Positions 32,830 through 43,528 of a stretch of 64,000 bases of DNA are shown one piece after another (position 1 is the stretch's first letter; each line of letters begins with the position of its first letter). The position numbers and the translations under genes were made by a program. A model generated the notes under the pieces. That model saw only the letters and a list, made by a program, of their open reading frames with translations, ran no database searches and was not told the origin of the DNA. This DNA comes from Candidatus Nomurabacteria bacterium (GTDB taxonomy: Bacteria; Patescibacteriota; Patescibacteriia; HK-STAS-PATE-3). The stretch is from positions 480,001 through 544,000 of the forward strand of contig CP060223.1 in NCBI GenBank assembly GCA_023898465.1, read 5' to 3'.

Positions 32830-33876
32830 TTAAATAACTTCCATCACGCCTGTATACATACCCATAGAACATGAATATGTATATCGGCCCGGTTGCGTTG
32901 GAGTAAATTGAAAACTTTGTCGGTCAGTGGGACGCAAAAAAGTGTCAATACCAAATTGTCGAAAAGTAAAAGCAACCGCACAAGAATATACGTCATTACT
33001 CTGCAATATCAACTCCACTGGCTTATTCTTTTCAACCGCAAAATATCGGGGCGAGTACCCTTGACCCAACACGTTAATGGTTACTCGCTGCACACCGTTA
33101 GTAAGTACCACTTCATCACTAACAGCCTTTGGTGTGCTTGTGTTCTGAAATTTTGCAATAATTTTTTCATACGTAATTGGTGCATCATACACATTAAGGA
33201 TCCCGTTGAAGCTGATAAGCGACAAGACAATCAAAATAGCAGCGGCAGTTTTTTGAAACCATCCATGCATCGTATCTGAGAGCTTCGCGGTCATGACGCC
33301 AAGTAAGGTAAAAATTGGTGAAGTACCAAGCACAAAGAAAAACATAATAAGGGCTCCAGCTATAGGACTGCCACTAGTAACTGCCACCACTTCCATTGCC
33401 TGAGTAACGCCGCAAGGGATAAAGACGGTCAAGACCCCTAATACTGCGGGGGCAAATAAAGTATCGCTCTTACTTGATTTCTTCACAAAGCGCTGCAGCC
33501 AACGCGGTGGCTGAAATGCTAAGAAGCGAAAGATTGGATGCACGTTTAATAAGTTCATTGCTGTAGCAAACATAAACAACGCTGCAGCAAGTTGAAAAGC
33601 GATACGCACATTTAATCCTATCGCTAACACTGAACCAAGCCAGCCAAGCAAAAAACCAAAGGCGGTGTGTACAATTAATTTCGCTAGTAAAAAAATACCT
33701 ACTGGCCAAATATCTGTTCCGCGGATTCGTGCATCGCTAGATTTTAGTGATGTTTTTCCGTTTTCAGATCGTTCCTTCTGATTAGCTATCACGCCTGCCA
33801 ACAACCCCCCTTGGACAGCTAGGCAGGTTAAGCCACCGGTAGTTAAGCCTGCTAAGAAAAAAACCCAATAATTCAT
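32830..33876 (-). CDS. TauE/UreH-like permease fused to a C-terminal cupredoxin-like domain
   Basis: ~7 TM helices. C-terminal [16 protein letters not shown] (Cys-Met cluster). Overlaps the copA stop. Confidence 0.55.
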
Positions 33877-36104
33877 ATGTGTGATCGAAACGTTTTTAAT
33901 CGTAAGGCATTAAGCACAACTGAAACACTTGAAAAGGCCATTGCAGCGCCTGCCCAAATTGGATTGATAGTAATTCCCCAAATCGGCGCTAATGCTCCCA
34001 TGGCAACGGGTATGAGAAGAACATTATAACCAAAAGCCCAAGCAAGATTTTGCCAAATATTCTTCATAGTTGCTCGAGAAAGCGCAAGAGTCACTGGAAT
34101 TAACCGTAAGTCTGGACGAAGTAACACAACTCCAGCGGTCGCAATAGCAACATCAGTTCCCTGCCCCATTGCAATACTTAGATCCGCCGCTGCCAAGGCA
34201 GGCGCGTCGTTAATTCCATCCCCAATCATTGCGACGCCTTTTTTCTGCTGCTGCAGCTCTTTTATTCGCTGCTCTTTTTCTTGTGGAAGCACCTGTCCGA
34301 TAACTTGCGAAAGTTTAAGCTCACGCTGCACGTGCTGCGCTGCTTCTCTAGTATCACCAGTGAGCATTATGGTCTGTATGCCCTGATGATTTAAGGCGGC
34401 AATTACGCTGGCGGATTCCTCACGTATCGTATCAGCAATACTAAAGGAGACGAGGGCTTCATGATTGTCGGCCACATATACACGAGACATATTCACTGGC
34501 ATGAATTGAGCCTGGTCTGCATCGATTTGGATATTCTCTTGAGCCAACAGTGAGGCACTACCAATATTCATTTGACCGATAGTATCCTTAGCCCGAACTC
34601 CTTTTCCGGGCACATCAATTATTTCAGGCGCTGTTTCTGCGCTAGGTATTCCTTTGTCATTGATATACTGCGCAATAGCTTTTGCTAAAGGATGATTTGA
34701 GCGTTCTTCAATTGTCCGGACACGGCCAAGTAACTCTTGCTGCTCCTGGACGGAAAAAGTACGCATCATTTGTATATCTTGTACACGGGGCTTGCCTTCC
34801 GTTAAGGTGCCAGTTTTATCAAACACAATGGTCTGCACACGTCTCCCCAATTCAAGCGCTTCAGCATTTTTTATAAGTATCCCAAGCTCTGAACCCTTAC
34901 CAATGCCGACCATAATTGAAGTGGGAGTGGCTAAGCCGAGCGCGCAGGGACAAGCAATAATAAGCACACTCACCATGCTTACAAGTGCGTGTGCCCAAAC
35001 TGGATCTGGTCCAAAAAATAACCAAAGTCCAAAAGTGAGCAATGAAAGAGCGATAACAATTGGCACGAAATATGCTGAGATCTTGTCAGCTAAATTCTGT
35101 ACCGGGGGTCGAGATCCTTGCGCTTCTTCAACTAAGCGTACGATTTGTGCCAGCATAGTTTCATCACCCACTCGTCTTGCTTCCATCTCAAAAGCACCGC
35201 TAGTATTCATAGTTGCGCCAATTACCTGGTCTCCTGCCTTTTTCTCTACTGGCAAGCCTTCCCCAGTCACCATGCTTTCGTCTACCGCAGAGGATCCAGA
35301 CACAATATTCCCATCAACAGGAACTTTTTCACCTGGCTTCACTAAAATACGGTCTCCTACACGCACGTCAGTAAGGGGAAGATCCTGCCAAGTTTTTTTT
35401 TGAAATACATGCGCTATTTTTGCCTCTAGCTTCAACAAACGCTTCATTGCTGTAGCTGCCTGACCTTTTGCTCGCAACTCGAGAAATTTACCCAGTAACA
35501 CTAATGTAATTACCGTAGCTGAAGTTTCAAAGTACGCTAGCTGACTAATACCTAATGCCGCTAATTGATTTTCGTAAACTATTGAGAATGCTGAGGAGGC
35601 ATAGGCTACGCTAGTTCCTAAGGCGATAAGCGTATCCATATTGGCCGTGCGATTTTTCAGCGCAGACCAAGCGCTCAGGTAATAGTTTTTTCCAGCCCAA
35701 AACTGTACCGGGGTGGCAAGTATCCACATCAACCATGACTGACGCAGCCAATCAGGCGCTCCTGGCACCATCGCGCCAATAAGCAATAGTACAGTGAGTG
35801 GGAAAGAAACAAACAATCTCTGTCTCAACTGACGCAACTCTTCGACTCGTTCCTTTTCCGTAAGATCGCCGTGATCATGTACGCCTATGTGCGCTTTATA
35901 ACCCAACTTTGCAACGGTTTGCCCTATTTCATACTCTGGAGTTGCATGAGGGTCGAAGCTAACTGCTGCTTGATGATTTCCATAATTTACCGTTGCCTCT
36001 TTTACACCTGGAAGTTTCTTTAGACGACGTTGGATATTTGCCGCACAGCTTGCGCAATGCATGCCAGACACATGAAAATTGATCTGTTGGACATTATTTG
36101 GCAT
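33873..36104 (-). CDS. copA: copper-translocating P1B-type ATPase
   Basis: N-terminal [17 protein letters not shown] ([13 protein letters not shown]), [16 protein letters not shown] place the start at MPNNVQQ (36104). Confidence 0.9.
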
Positions 36105-36573
36105 ATTTTCCTGGATTTTTTTGAAAAGCCTTTTTACATCCACTCGCGCAAAAATAATATTTCTTCCCCTGATATTGCATGGCCGCGCCGGCCGTACTCG
36201 GAGAGACACGCATGTGACATACAGGGTCATGCACGATTGGCATAAGATCCTTCATTGTCCTACTGAATTCATCAGGTTTTTTATCGCCCTGTTGAACAAC
36301 AATAATGTCGCGAATAAGTTGACTCGCCTTAGCAAAATTCGGATGAGCTAAATGGTATCGAAGACGCTTTCCCAGCCGATGATAACTTACCGCTCCAGCA
36401 TCACGAAGTATTTTAAGATGCTGACTGAGATTTGCTTGTGGCAAACCAAGCATGTCTTGCATTTCCTCAACCGTTGCTGGGCCTTCTTTTAGTAAATGTA
36501 AAACCTCCAAACGGCGCGGATGTGCAAGCGCTTTTAAAAGCTTGGCGTGGAGTTTAAAAACTTGTTCATACAT
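36094..36573 (-). CDS. ArsR/SmtB-family metalloregulator with C-terminal YHS/TRASH zinc-ribbon-like domain
   Basis: [19 protein letters not shown]...[16 protein letters not shown]-terminal DPVCHM...[13 protein letters not shown] place the start at MYEQ (36573). Confidence 0.8.
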
Positions 36574-36615
36574 ATTCGCTATTTCGAATATATATACTTC
36601 AGAAAAAACTGTCAA
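36572..36615 (-). promoter_or_regulatory. cop operon promoter TTGACA-N17-TATATT with a 7-6-7 inverted repeat ATATTCG-N6-CGAATAT overlapping the start codon (putative operator; near-leaderless mRNA)
   Basis: Read directly. The -35 is at 36610-36615, the -10 at 36587-36592, the palindrome at 36572-36591. Only 13 nt lie between the -10 and the ATG, and there is no SD. Confidence 0.45.
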
Positions 36616-37969: not shown

Positions 37970-38446
37970 TTACTGCCCTTGCTCGAAATCCTTCAGGATA
38001 CGCAAGTATTTTGCTTGAGTATCACTACCAATTTGTGGATGCGTAAAAACCGGCATTACACCGGTTATTGCTATGATATTTCTTACTTCATCAAAATAGA
38101 ATCCATCCAACGTTGCAATAAAGAGCCAAGAAGGATTCCAAGACTTAGCCATCCGTTTAGCATCTATAAGCACATATTCAGGACTTAGTTGTTTTTGATA
38201 TTTTACCTCTATCAATCTGACTTCGCTTGTTGCATGATCAATGACAGCGAAATCTGGCGCGGTACGTAAAATATTAACTGTTGGATTATCTTGTGAATAA
38301 CCCTGCTGGATAAGCTCAGGGATAATTTTTTCATACCCAAATTCGAGTACTGTAAATTGGCGTGATTCGCGAAACATTTGTGCAAATATCGTTTCAGCAA
38401 TTTTACCTTTAATGAGATTGTGAGTGAATTCTGTTGAGGTAGACAT
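37970..38446 (-). CDS. PD-(D/E)XK nuclease-fold protein (Hjc/endonuclease-like)
   Basis: GKIAETIF (E) ... APDFAVID (D) ... RLIEVKY (E-x-K) in the canonical order and spacing. 158 aa. Confidence 0.5.
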   Translation of the reverse strand: MSTSTEFTHNLIKGKIAETIFAQMFRESRQFTVLEFGYEKIIPELIQQGYSQDNPTVNILRTAPDFAVIDHATSEVRLIEVKYQKQLSPEYVLIDAKRMAKSWNPSWLFIATLDGFYFDEVRNIIAITGVMPVFTHPQIGSDTQAKYLRILKDFEQGQ

Positions 38447-38598
38447 TATTTTTTCTTAATAAACTTTTTCAACTTTACTTGAATGTAGGTTGCCGCAATA
38501 GTAAACAGAAGTATTATTCCAAAAGCAGGAAGAAATACTTTCAGCATTATTCCCATAAACCTACTTGTACCTTCAACAAGCTGAGGATCGGCAGGCAT
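38446..38598 (-). CDS. small membrane protein (50 aa; below the track cutoff)
   Basis: The ATG abuts the upstream stop (TAAATG) and its stop overlaps the next ATG (TAATG). One TM helix (VFLPAFGIILLFTIAATYI) and a Lys-rich tail. Confidence 0.4.
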   Translation of the reverse strand: MPADPQLVEGTSRFMGIMLKVFLPAFGIILLFTIAATYIQVKLKKFIKKK

Positions 38599-38784
38599 TT
38601 ATCTTGTTTTCTTCTTATAGCAGCTATAACAAAGCGAACGATCGCGGGAAATAACTGTACCACAACTCCGGCACTTTTTCGTGCCATACTTTTTTACACT
38701 CGAAGACTTTTTCTTAGTCTGGCATGAGTAGCACAGTGTATACGTTCCTGTTGTTTTTGTTCCACAGCGGCTGCATTTAGGCAT
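38599..38784 (-). CDS. double zinc-ribbon small protein (61 aa)
   Basis: I place the start at MPKCSRCG. Two CxxC...CxxC units (CSRC..CYSC; CRSC..CYSC), very basic. Confidence 0.5.
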   Translation of the reverse strand: MPKCSRCGTKTTGTYTLCYSCQTKKKSSSVKKYGTKKCRSCGTVISRDRSLCYSCYKKKTR

Positions 38785-38789
38785 ACTTA

Positions 38790-38966
38790 CTACGCCCCCA
38801 AAAACTTCAGCGCCTCGTAGACAAAGAAAACGGGCCAGATAATCGCTTTTAACAAACCGAGTACGCCAATCCAAAATGAAGTCGCTACCGAGATATAGTA
38901 GATAGCGGCACCGATCAGACCGAGACCATAGAAAGCCCCACTACTCCCTGCATTTGCCTTATTCAT
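38790..38966 (-). CDS. small membrane protein (58 aa; below the track cutoff)
   Basis: AAGGAG SD 5 nt upstream of the ATG. Two hydrophobic helices (FYGLGLIGAAIYYI; WIGVLGLLKAIIWPVFFV). Confidence 0.45.
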   Translation of the reverse strand: MNKANAGSSGAFYGLGLIGAAIYYISVATSFWIGVLGLLKAIIWPVFFVYEALKFLGA

Positions 38967-39000
38967 ATAACTCCTTAACTAATTATGTTTACAGGACAAA

Positions 39001-39258
39001 TTATACCACTTCGCGACGAACATAAAATAGACAACAAAGGGATACAGTCGCCGGAAACAAATATACCAAATCAAACCACCCTATTTGATCAGTGATAGTC
39101 AAAAAAATATTCAACAACATGAGTAGAGCAAGCATCCAGTAGGCCCACTTCTTTTTCAATCGTAATTGCCAAGTAAGTAAGAAGAGCGCAAAAGCATTTA
39201 CTAACGCAAAGCTAGAATAAAAGAAGCGGTAATCTGAGTCGCGAAATAACCAAAACAA
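39001..39258 (-). CDS. small membrane protein (85 aa)
   Basis: 3 hydrophobic helices. Start uncertain. Confidence 0.45.
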   Translation of the reverse strand: MFWLFRDSDYRFFYSSFALVNAFALFLLTWQLRLKKKWAYWMLALLMLLNIFLTITDQIGWFDLVYLFPATVSLCCLFYVRREVV

Positions 39259-39391
39259 CGCAAAGCATACCCAGAAGGCCGCAATGCTATAGAGTAGTCG
39301 AATGGTAAAAGTGAAATAATTTATAGTCGAAGCATATTATTGATAAGTGGAAAGGAAAAGCCGCCGGTAAAGACCAACGGCTAGATGAAAT

Positions 39392-40034: not shown

Positions 40035-41186
40035 CTAATTATCTATTTCAAAATCCCAGAGTGCTTGTACCTGCGACGCGCTTAGGCCGGTGCGTGTCGC
40101 AATCTCTTGAGCCAAACTTGAGGTGCTGGTATTTGCAGAGGTCCACTCATAGCGCTGTGTATCACCACGGCGGGCTTTAATTTCTGTGCCATCTTCACGT
40201 ACCCGGACTTCTATTTCCCATTGGGCTTCTTCTTCATCGCCGTGATCCTCTGAATCGTTTGAATTACTATTACTGTTATGTGAATTGGTATCATCATTCA
40301 CATTTCCTTCATGAGAGTTGGTTGCATCTACATGCGTATTCTTATTATCATTTCCATGATCATCATTGGTGTCAGAATGGTCATCACTGCTATTGGCATT
40401 TTGCAGATCTACACCATCATACTCAATTTTGATAGCTGCCCGAACTTGGGCTTCGCTTAAGCCTAAACGGTCGGTAACTGCTTTAATAATTTCTTCACGA
40501 TCAGTCGTAGTCAGGGTAAACTCACTGTGCTGATTTGCTACTTCAGCCTGAACAAAGGCTTGTGCACCAGCTACGTGCACTTCAATTTCAATTCGCTGAA
40601 GACTATGACTGTTTTGTGCGTCTTCAATCTCACGCAGTTTTACTTCAACGTTACTTAGCGTCGCTGCAGCATGCTCATTTTCTTTGGCTTCTAATTCATC
40701 GCGCACTTCAGCTACGGTTTGTTGCGCATTTTGCAGAGCGGAATTTACATGATCAGCAGCATCTCGAGCTAGTTGCTCCTTTTGCTCTTGCTCTAACTCA
40801 GCTAGCTCTTTTGCTCGCTCAGCTGCAATCTCAGCCTGGATGCGGAGTCGCGCCTCAGCTGAGGTGGCTAAATTTAAACGGACTTGCTCGACGGCTTGAT
40901 CAATACCAAAGAGCCAATCTCCTGGCTTGGCATTATTCGCTGCGAGGACAGTGCCGGTGCCGCTGCCTAATAACACGATAGCGATAAGGATGCTTGCAAT
41001 CATATTTTTGTGATTAAGGAAAAAACCTGATCGCTGCTTATATCGATCAGCTTCCGGGACTGTTACGCTCGATGCAGCCATACGCAAACGAGCCTCAATA
41101 CGTTCACGGGCAGCCGGAGATAAAGACTGAGAATGAGACATCTTTAACAGCTTGATAATTTCTTTTGATGAAAAATGTTTCGACAT
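40035..41186 (-). CDS. anti-sigma-factor-like membrane protein (DUF5667-like): cytoplasmic head, TM helix, coiled coil, His/Asp/Asn-rich region
   Basis: Lies immediately downstream of the ECF sigma gene. One TM helix (ASILIAIVLLGSG). Two similar ...GLS(E/A)(A/S)QV... modules. Confidence 0.55.
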   Translation of the reverse strand: MSKHFSSKEIIKLLKMSHSQSLSPAARERIEARLRMAASSVTVPEADRYKQRSGFFLNHKNMIASILIAIVLLGSGTGTVLAANNAKPGDWLFGIDQAVEQVRLNLATSAEARLRIQAEIAAERAKELAELEQEQKEQLARDAADHVNSALQNAQQTVAEVRDELEAKENEHAAATLSNVEVKLREIEDAQNSHSLQRIEIEVHVAGAQAFVQAEVANQHSEFTLTTTDREEIIKAVTDRLGLSEAQVRAAIKIEYDGVDLQNANSSDDHSDTNDDHGNDNKNTHVDATNSHEGNVNDDTNSHNSNSNSNDSEDHGDEEEAQWEIEVRVREDGTEIKARRGDTQRYEWTSANTSTSSLAQEIATRTGLSASQVQALWDFEIDN

Positions 41187-41190
41187 ATAT

Positions 41191-41736
41191 TTACGAATAA
41201 GAGAGTTGTTCCATTTCCTTGCGTAAGGCTTGCAAAGCCCTATGTTTCAATACGCGCACATTGAGAGCACTGATCTGCATTACTTTTGCCACTTCACTTA
41301 TACTTAGATCCTCTCGATAAAGCATATGGAGCAGAGTTGCGTAGCGTTCAGGAAGGCGGGTTAAGGCTGATTCCATTTCCCGCTCCATTATTACATCTGG
41401 CATCTCATCCGGATCACTTGATAAAGTATGACTCACGCTCTCAATATCAACCTGGGTGCGTTGGCCACGATAATGATCAATCAAGCGGAAACGGGCAATT
41501 TGAAAAAGCCAGGTAGAGAATTTTGCATGTTTCTGCTCCTTATATCGGGGCAATGAGCGAATCATTTCAAGAAAAACAGTTTGGGTTAAATCCTCAGCTG
41601 TTTCCTGACTACTGACCCGCATAAGCAAGAAACGGAACACCCGGTCTCCGAAAAGGTGGAAAAGTTCGGCCACCCCTTCTTGATCCCCTTGTTGCGCTCT
41701 GGCGACGATTTCCTGTACTTGGCTTTCGTGTTGCAT
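41191..41736 (-). CDS. ECF-type sigma-70 family RNA polymerase sigma factor
   Basis: Region 2 (DLTQTVFLEMIRSL..Y....KFSTWLFQIARFRLIDHYR) and region 4 (ISEVAKVMQISALNVRVLKHRAL). Confidence 0.9.
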   Translation of the reverse strand: MQHESQVQEIVARAQQGDQEGVAELFHLFGDRVFRFLLMRVSSQETAEDLTQTVFLEMIRSLPRYKEQKHAKFSTWLFQIARFRLIDHYRGQRTQVDIESVSHTLSSDPDEMPDVIMEREMESALTRLPERYATLLHMLYREDLSISEVAKVMQISALNVRVLKHRALQALRKEMEQLSYS

Positions 41737-42745: not shown

Positions 42746-43528
42746 TTAAGGCCGGAGAGTACCGGAAAACATTTGCCAGGCTAGAGCTGATTTCGCCACC
42801 AGGGACAAAATCATATAGGCCTTTTCACCGTAGAGATAGTCCTGCCATTTCCCTATCTTCTTATACTGCAGGACCATGTTAATCGCGAAGATGTTAAAGG
42901 TGACAAAGATGGTGGCCACAATGAAATAAACAAAGGTAGGAATCTCCACTCCGGTCGACTGTACCGCGCCAATGAAGAAAGCAACAATGACCAGCCAGGG
43001 AATTAAGCCAGCCAAAACTCCTATCCAGTACGAAAGCCAATTCGTATGCTTGGTCGTCTGATTATGTACTTCCATCATCAAGCCCATGAGATTCATAATC
43101 GCATTCAAGGCAAACAGCGAAATGAGTAGCCAAAGATCGTACACACCACAAAGCATGGCAATAACTACAATCATAACTGACGAGGATAAGGCATACTCAG
43201 CCCAACGCAGCTTGTTGATGCCCTTTTTCAAATTCTCCTCATACCATTCCCGCAAAGGTCCGGCTAGAAGGAAATGCGCAAAAGCAGAAAGGAAGAGAAA
43301 GACCGCTACGGTGGGGCCTAAGCGTAAGTCAAACAAATGCTCAGGAAGTGGAGCTACACCAAAAACTGGATTATTTGGATCGATTTTCAGGTATGAAGTA
43401 ACAACTGGTAAAGATGAATTATTGCTTATCAAAACCATAATGACGCCTTGCACGAAGTGAAGGGCGGCCATTGACCAATTCCAGACTTGTAGTTTTTTTA
43501 ACTGCTCTTTTTGACTACGCATTTTCAT
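42746..43528 (-). CDS. heliorhodopsin
   Basis: 260 aa, 7 TM. RWAEYALSSSVMIVVIAMLCG and GEKAYMILSLVAKSALAWQMFSGTLRP closely match my recollection of heliorhodopsin 48C12 (RWVEYSLSSSVMIVLIAQICG; GERAYIVLSLVAKSALAWQIFSGTLIPA). This includes the Schiff-base Lys and the counterion Glu. Confidence 0.85.
   Translation of the reverse strand: MKMRSQKEQLKKLQVWNWSMAALHFVQGVIMVLISNNSSLPVVTSYLKIDPNNPVFGVAPLPEHLFDLRLGPTVAVFLFLSAFAHFLLAGPLREWYEENLKKGINKLRWAEYALSSSVMIVVIAMLCGVYDLWLLISLFALNAIMNLMGLMMEVHNQTTKHTNWLSYWIGVLAGLIPWLVIVAFFIGAVQSTGVEIPTFVYFIVATIFVTFNIFAINMVLQYKKIGKWQDYLYGEKAYMILSLVAKSALAWQMFSGTLRP

Follow-up and report, generated by a model that had tools for sequence, protein, structure and literature searches.

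A new family of standalone PD-(D/E)XK nuclease-fold proteins in Patescibacteria, and the run of four small genes in which one member lies

The described proteins closest to the subject of this paper are the archaeal Holliday-junction resolvase Hjc and AHJR-like proteins, which are minimal single-domain PD-(D/E)XK proteins, the N-terminal domain of TnsA (PF08722), and the Shedu protein SduA together with type IV or methyl-directed enzymes such as DpnI and the 155-amino-acid (aa) NhoI, whose genes stand alone without a fixed partner. The gene considered here, NUC158, is the last in a run of four small genes of Candidatus Nomurabacteria. It lies in a window of 64,000 nucleotides (nt), positions 480,001 to 544,000 of contig CP060223.1 (assembly GCA_023898465.1), and coordinates given without a locus number are those of this window. 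An earlier note on this DNA had likened the run to compact defence or abortive-infection modules, with a nuclease tethered to small membrane and zinc-ribbon partners. We find the four genes together only in this one Patescibacteria genome, and they are not a conserved system. The interpretation that we prefer, and consider probable, is that of a lineage-specific run of four small genes whose last member is a new standalone PD-(D/E)XK nuclease of the Candidate Phyla Radiation (CPR), accessory and with a restriction-like role. The four genes are as follows.

38790-38966, minus strand: TM58, a hydrophobic protein of 58 aa (NCBI H6760_02550)
38599-38784, minus strand: DZR61, 61 aa from its ATG, an unannotated, very basic double zinc ribbon with four CxxC pairs
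38446-38598, minus strand: TM50, 50 aa, an unannotated single-pass membrane peptide with N-terminus MPADPQLVE and C-terminus KKFIKKK
37970-38446, minus strand: NUC158, 158 aa, a standalone PD-(D/E)XK nuclease-fold protein (NCBI H6760_02545)

The nuclease family and its described relatives

NUC158 is 100% identical to "hypothetical protein H6760_02545" of a Candidatus Nomurabacteria metagenome-assembled genome (MAG). After clustering at 90% identity its homologues number at least 789, with lengths of 155-160 aa and identities of 55-70% in nearly all cases. A full-library profile search gave 449 representatives at 50% identity, of which almost all are 150-170 aa long and stand alone. All members with a taxonomic label come from Patescibacteria-type MAGs, which suggests that the family is restricted to the CPR. 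The residues E18, P64-D65 and E80-V-K82 are present in NUC158, and in an alignment of 24 core sequences, which has 51 invariant columns, the candidate catalytic residues E18, D65, E80 and K82 are invariant in 24 of 24. The E...PD...ExK order noticed earlier is conserved well beyond this core, in 67-70 of 73 diverse members at each catalytic position (E18 in 67, D65 in 70, E or D at position 80 in 70, K82 in 69), and K13-G14 and G37-x-E39 (G37-Y-E39 in NUC158) are likewise conserved. A confident AlphaFold2 model (pLDDT 90) shows the alpha-beta-beta-beta-alpha-beta core of the PD-(D/E)XK superfamily, and its structure matches are to generic PD-(D/E)XK folds, with TM-scores of 0.4-0.5. Model, fold matches and conserved residues together support the nuclease fold proposed from the sequence. 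In this family strands 1 and 2 are separated by a conserved, helical insert of about 27 aa (GYEK..PEL..QQG), and the C-terminus has an extra helix.

The nuclease stays below the threshold of every Pfam, NCBIfam, PADLOC and PHROG model. A search of PADLOC-DB v2 with all four proteins at E up to 0.1 gave no matches, in agreement with the earlier view that no named system fits the locus, and the same proteins had no useful match in NCBIfam or PHROGs. PDB sequences, searched with profiles from narrow as well as broad alignments, yielded noise only, with no Hjc, and literature searches returned nothing on the family. The sole recurrent Pfam signal is a sub-threshold TnsA-like_N match in 35 of 73 members. 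NUC158 thus appears to represent a new, undescribed sequence family inside a well-known fold.

The likeness to Hjc and AHJR-like proteins lies in the minimal single-domain form and in the layout of the active site: a helix-1 glutamate preceded by K-G, an aspartate opening strand 2 and ExK in strand 3. However, the Hjc model (PF01870) finds no match in NUC158 at E up to 0.1, nor among the 73 members at E up to 0.01, and the AHJR-like Pfam model is matched by one family member, at E 0.0035 only. The family further differs from Hjc in its insertion and extra C-terminal helix, and in being bacterial (from Patescibacteria-type MAGs wherever labelled) and patchy. The TnsA-like matches span strand 1 to strand 3, with a best E of 4.5e-6, but NUC158 itself, with 16 bits, falls short of the cut-off of 26.5 and has no TnsA C-terminal domain, and Tn7-type transposition proteins such as TnsB or TnsC are not among the neighbour families in our scan. 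SduA, DpnI and NhoI resemble NUC158 in being standalone genes without a fixed partner; moreover, the new family often lies in variable regions, in some cases beside restriction-modification, Abi or Shedu genes. It differs from these enzymes in having no PADLOC match and no reader or sensor domain, and its conservation far exceeds that of typical defence genes. For a homing endonuclease of the I-Ssp6803I type a conserved target gene or intron would be expected, and none is seen; the flanks are unrelated between loci.

Distribution and surroundings of the nuclease gene

With peptide patterns invariant in the core family we obtained 104 confirmed matches among 185,579 species genomes. The genomes of the 80 loci compared below carry the labels Parcubacteria, Paceibacteria, Saccharibacteria, Falkow-, Kerfeld-, Moran-, Wolfe-, Lloyd- and Magasanikbacteria, with many further labels that are doubtful. 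Identity within taxon labels (0.60-0.64) is close to that between labels (0.59-0.62), and cross-label pairs reach 95%. In blastn comparisons of 1177 pairs of loci, 884 show homology that ends within 15 nt of the open reading frame (ORF) on both sides, and 23 of these have at least 85% DNA identity. Two MAGs have two diverged copies on different contigs, 73% identical in JAQVBZ01 (loci L014 and L019) and 63% in JACAFG01 (L045 and L076). Relatives of the nuclease are absent from viral contigs, phage records and genomes, and plasmid records, and no terminal repeats were found at the ends of the ORF. A scan for transfer RNA genes in seven high-identity loci found one in two of them, in each case more than 2.8 kb from the nuclease gene.

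We compared 80 nuclease loci from species-representative genomes, with flanks of about 4 kb. The immediate neighbours differ from locus to locus and are heterogeneous at the protein level; the largest neighbour cluster, an S51 peptidase, occurs in 9 of the 80, all in one subclade. The closest relative of NUC158 (L081, 70% identity) has different neighbours; its locus also has a heliorhodopsin gene within 3 kb and otherwise shows no synteny with the window. Defence-type neighbours form a visible minority and include XhoI, DpnI, methyltransferases, Abi_2/AbiD, NERD, SduA and GajB-like helicases. Other neighbours include a Schlafen-like helicase, PIN_8, GIY-YIG, peptidases, NUDIX, GNAT, GatB and transporters.

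In the 45 nt upstream of the nuclease ATG, inspected in 21 loci (among L001-L026), there is no Shine-Dalgarno sequence; the same loci have an AT-rich stretch with a -10-like ATAAT or TATAAT 0-10 nt before the ATG. This arrangement suggests a leaderless messenger RNA, or one with a very short leader. The copy in the window, whose start overlaps the stop of TM50, is also without a Shine-Dalgarno sequence.

One subclade has, in addition, a non-coding element of about 165 nt, 86-92% identical between loci and located 0.75-3.2 kb downstream of the nuclease on the same strand:

L001:5668-5832, strand of the nuclease, 165-nt element
L004:5643-5807, strand of the nuclease, 165-nt element
L005:7652-7816, strand of the nuclease, 165-nt element
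L006:5875-6039, strand of the nuclease, 165-nt element
L008:7667-7831, strand of the nuclease, 165-nt element
L009:5214-5378, strand of the nuclease, 165-nt element
L010:5734-5898, strand of the nuclease, 165-nt element
L011:6149-6313, strand of the nuclease, 165-nt element
L013:2377-2541, strand of the nuclease, 165-nt element

The element ends sharply at GGTTCCAGCCCGAGGTAGCCCGC and is followed, in about six of nine loci, by what appear by eye to be unrelated intrinsic terminators. The genes between it and the nuclease vary by locus, and in some pairs (L001 and L009, for example) the nuclease ORF and the element are the sole homologous DNA. It has no Rfam family, transfer RNA, ORF or covariation, and a covariance model built from it matches only these 10 loci, with none in the window or in viral contigs. 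The element might be a small RNA, a 3' untranslated-region element or the end of a cassette.

The four-gene run in the window

The four minus-strand ORFs have the coordinates and spacings first assigned to them: TM58 and DZR61 are separated by 5 nt (TAG-TAAGT-ATG), DZR61 and TM50 by 0 nt (TAAATG), and TM50 and NUC158 overlap by 1 nt (TAATG). In the window, however, 48% of co-directional ORF pairs are spaced by 10 nt or less; three consecutive tight junctions are therefore unremarkable in this genome, and spacing alone is no evidence of a functional unit.

A phmmer search with TM58, DZR61 and TM50 against all ORFs of at least 25 aa found a homologue of the three small proteins in 0 of the 80 nuclease loci, within about 4 kb. 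The conservation of the small ORFs beside homologous nucleases, on which the earlier proposal depended, is thus missing. A single compact module for defence or abortive infection, made up of all four genes and with the nuclease tethered or regulated by the membrane peptides and the zinc-ribbon protein, would fit the tight junctions and the single plausible promoter. It would also fit the zinc ribbons fused to the nuclease in a divergent subfamily, whose tail DZR61 resembles, and the nature of the only TM50 homologue, a membrane-anchored zinc-ribbon protein beside a type II restriction enzyme. The arrangement is nevertheless kept at none of the compared loci, homologues of TM58 and DZR61 occur without the nuclease, PADLOC gave no matches, and tight junctions are normal in this genome. 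Nor is a membrane segment consistently fused to any member of the nuclease family, and tethering of the nuclease to the membrane is unsupported. The lack of co-occurrence largely refutes the module, and we regard it as very unlikely. The four co-oriented genes in this compact Candidatus Nomurabacteria genome are probably co-transcribed, and the run would then be a chance, lineage-specific operon that brings together, beside the nuclease, genes with three independent distributions: TM58, which is widespread, DZR61, which is rare, and TM50.

The small genes themselves hold up. TM58 and TM50, which had been found by reading the sequence below a 60-aa cut-off, are both genes. TM58 is hydrophobic over residues 11-51, probably with two transmembrane (TM) helices, and has a codon log-likelihood ratio of 10.1. 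Its 313 homologues (clusters), with 67-87% identity, come from MAGs labelled Bacteroidales and Patescibacteria and form a strongly conserved family of hydrophobic proteins of about 60 aa for which there is no Pfam or NCBIfam model. In the three contexts examined, these homologues follow HU, methyltransferase or hypothetical genes, and no ribbon or nuclease comes after them. TM50 is hydrophobic over residues 13-43, and its codon log-likelihood ratio of 4.6 is low, yet inside the range of real genes. The one homologue found, of 93 aa, shares the MPADPQLVE N-terminus and the TM segment, with many synonymous differences, and has a Topoisomerase-type C4 zinc ribbon after the TM helix. This relative (L095:859-1140, also L098:899-1180) lies 130 nt downstream of a TdeIII-type restriction endonuclease gene (R.TdeIII) and upstream of a membrane-anchored protein that by eye resembles the histidine-phosphatase family. 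A search of viral contigs for MPADPQLVE gave one internal match in a high-GC helicase, which we judged coincidental.

DZR61 has 17 lysines and arginines against one acidic residue. Residues 4-55 score 27.8 bits against the Pfam model DZR (PF12773), just above its gathering threshold of 27.3, and the likeness extends to the four CxxC pairs in two ribbons; DZR61 differs in being free-standing, only 61 aa long and very basic. Just two homologues were found in 5.8 billion clusters, with 62% and 57% identity, both starting with MPKC; the cysteines are kept in one (P0391), and one cysteine is lost in the other (P0392). Between DZR61 and one of these homologues, 21 of the codon changes are synonymous and 23 are non-synonymous, and third positions are over-represented among the differences. 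This pattern indicates selection on DZR61 at the protein level, despite codon usage atypical for the window. In their two contexts the homologues follow unrelated genes, and no nuclease of the NUC158 family comes after them. The exact DZR61 and TM50 sequences are not in a collection of 15 billion called proteins. The locus tags H6760_02545 and H6760_02550 are consecutive, and consequently the NCBI annotation should have no gene between those of TM58 and the nuclease. Both DZR61 and TM50 are genuine genes, apparently missing from the public annotation (38446-38784, minus strand).

Zinc ribbons provide the only hint of a functional link between the nuclease and its neighbours in the window. In a divergent subfamily with the motif FWLMFRD, the nuclease has C-terminal zinc ribbons, one in P0277, P0309 and P0320 and two in P0301; in P0304 a possible helix-turn-helix tail, seen by eye only, takes the place of the ribbon. 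DZR61 matches the double-ribbon tail of P0301 with 32% identity over 59 aa (E 7e-4), in a single comparison driven largely by the cysteines. Furthermore, L014 and L018 have an annotated 63-aa ribbon gene (CxCxxC...CPxC) directly upstream of the nuclease. Both loci are from Paceibacteria-type MAGs; a DEAD/ResIII-like protein of 488 aa also precedes the nuclease gene there, and a protein with a Shedu SduA_C domain follows it (L014:3743-3934 for the ribbon ORF; L014:4476-5762 belongs to the same zinc-ribbon, nuclease and Shedu observation). DZR61 may supply in trans the nucleic-acid-binding module that is fused in the divergent subfamily, and a basic zinc-ribbon partner aiding nucleic-acid binding by the nuclease at this locus is plausible.

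Two signals upstream of TM58 bear on the expression of the run:

38971-38976, minus strand: AAGGAG, the Shine-Dalgarno sequence of TM58, 4 nt before its ATG
39000-39008, minus strand: TGGTATAAT, an extended -10-like motif, 34 nt upstream of the TM58 ATG

The second is a possible promoter for the four genes. As had been reported, it is present and overlaps (at 39008-39000) the TAA of an 85-aa ORF upstream of TM58; on the other hand, the motif TGNTATAAT has 2 matches in the window against 2.66 expected by chance, and the status of that ORF as a gene is doubtful. The promoter-like motif is plausible but not significant. The 85-aa ORF, which is hydrophobic and has a TTG start (39001-39258, minus strand), has a weak codon score, no gene call and no counterpart in the collection of called proteins. 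It lies between TM58 and a good terminator-like hairpin (39359-39382, minus strand) that follows a 161-aa ORF. If it is not a gene, about 390 nt upstream of TM58 are non-coding. A hairpin 3' of the NUC158 gene is no better than shuffled sequence.

The same-strand neighbours of the run encode an extracytoplasmic function (ECF) sigma factor and a DUF5667 protein (40035-41736), a heliorhodopsin (42746-43528), a major facilitator superfamily (MFS) transporter and a secreted protein of 418 aa. They also encode an ArsR-YHS regulator and a copper P-type ATPase (33873-36615), whose genes overlap, and a DsbD-cupredoxin protein.

Possible roles of the nuclease

NUC158 would be a metal-dependent endonuclease that acts alone, probably as a homodimer on DNA, and its gene an accessory one that moves singly between CPR genomes. 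The most likely role would be a restriction-like attack on foreign or abnormal DNA, and it is such a function against foreign DNA that we favour, with modest confidence. The patchy occurrence, the variable flanks and the weak agreement with taxon labels argue for an accessory gene, probably exchanged horizontally, rather than for a housekeeping resolvase. As to defence, the idea in the earlier note keeps some force for the nuclease gene, which elsewhere stands alone and has a minority of defence-type neighbours, and loses it for the window locus.

Several observations weigh against a restriction-like accessory role. The neighbourhood in the window is one of envelope and metal-homeostasis genes and not a defence island. 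Identities of 55-70% across CPR classes are unusually high for a defence gene, and such strong conservation argues against a typical fast-evolving one. NUC158 has neither a sensor or specificity domain nor a conserved partner by which it could spare self DNA. Defence-type neighbours may be no more frequent than in a matched background, and the adjacency of a zinc-ribbon gene, found in 3 of 81 core-family loci, could be due to chance. Finally, the taxon labels of many MAGs are unreliable, and for this reason the inference of horizontal transfer is soft.

The strong conservation would fit a core function in DNA metabolism, and with the shared KG..AE / D / ExK layout it raises the possibility of a housekeeping Holliday-junction resolvase, a bacterial analogue of Hjc resolving recombination intermediates in CPR. 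A core gene of this kind would hardly be so patchy, with 104 confirmed matches in the species genomes searched and 449 clusters at 50% identity, nor present in two copies in some MAGs; no recombination genes recur as neighbours, the Pfam Hjc model finds no match and the 27-aa insertion is not in Hjc, all of which makes the resolvase improbable. High conservation would equally fit a conserved RNA substrate, and hence an endonuclease that processes or degrades RNA rather than a DNase. The structure, however, matches generic PD-(D/E)XK folds at the TM-scores given above and no RNA-metabolism genes recur nearby, and we give this explanation very little credence.

The sharp limits of homology, about 15 nt from the ORF ends even at 85-88% DNA identity, could instead mark a selfish nuclease gene that propagates itself as a single ORF, in the manner of a free-standing homing endonuclease. 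The variable flanks, the multiple copies in some genomes and a gene tree that does not follow taxon labels would agree with this. Against it, the loci have no target gene, intron or intein in common, the conserved flanks expected from homing are not seen, and terminal repeats are lacking; in addition, the whole protein is under strong purifying selection, which is unusual for homing endonucleases. The chance that the gene is selfish in this sense seems to us slim. A broader proposal, which we put forward as unlikely though somewhat less so, is that NUC158 is a self-sufficient, CPR-specific immunity or selfish nuclease that spreads horizontally as a bare ORF and can recruit nucleic-acid-binding partners, whether fused (the zinc-ribbon or helix-turn-helix tails) or adjacent (DZR61 in the window, the 63-aa ribbon of L014 and L018), and that in one subclade it heads a cassette of variable cargo ending in the 165-nt element.

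CPR or Patescibacteria have tiny genomes, whose accessory genes are for the most part uncharacterised. The NUC158 family combines the conservation of a core gene with the distribution of a mobile accessory one, and no database model describes it. The run in the window also offers a lesson, namely that in a compact genome tight gene spacing does not define a system. Knowing the substrate of the NUC158 family would inform on the ways in which these episymbionts deal with nucleic acid that is foreign or damaged.
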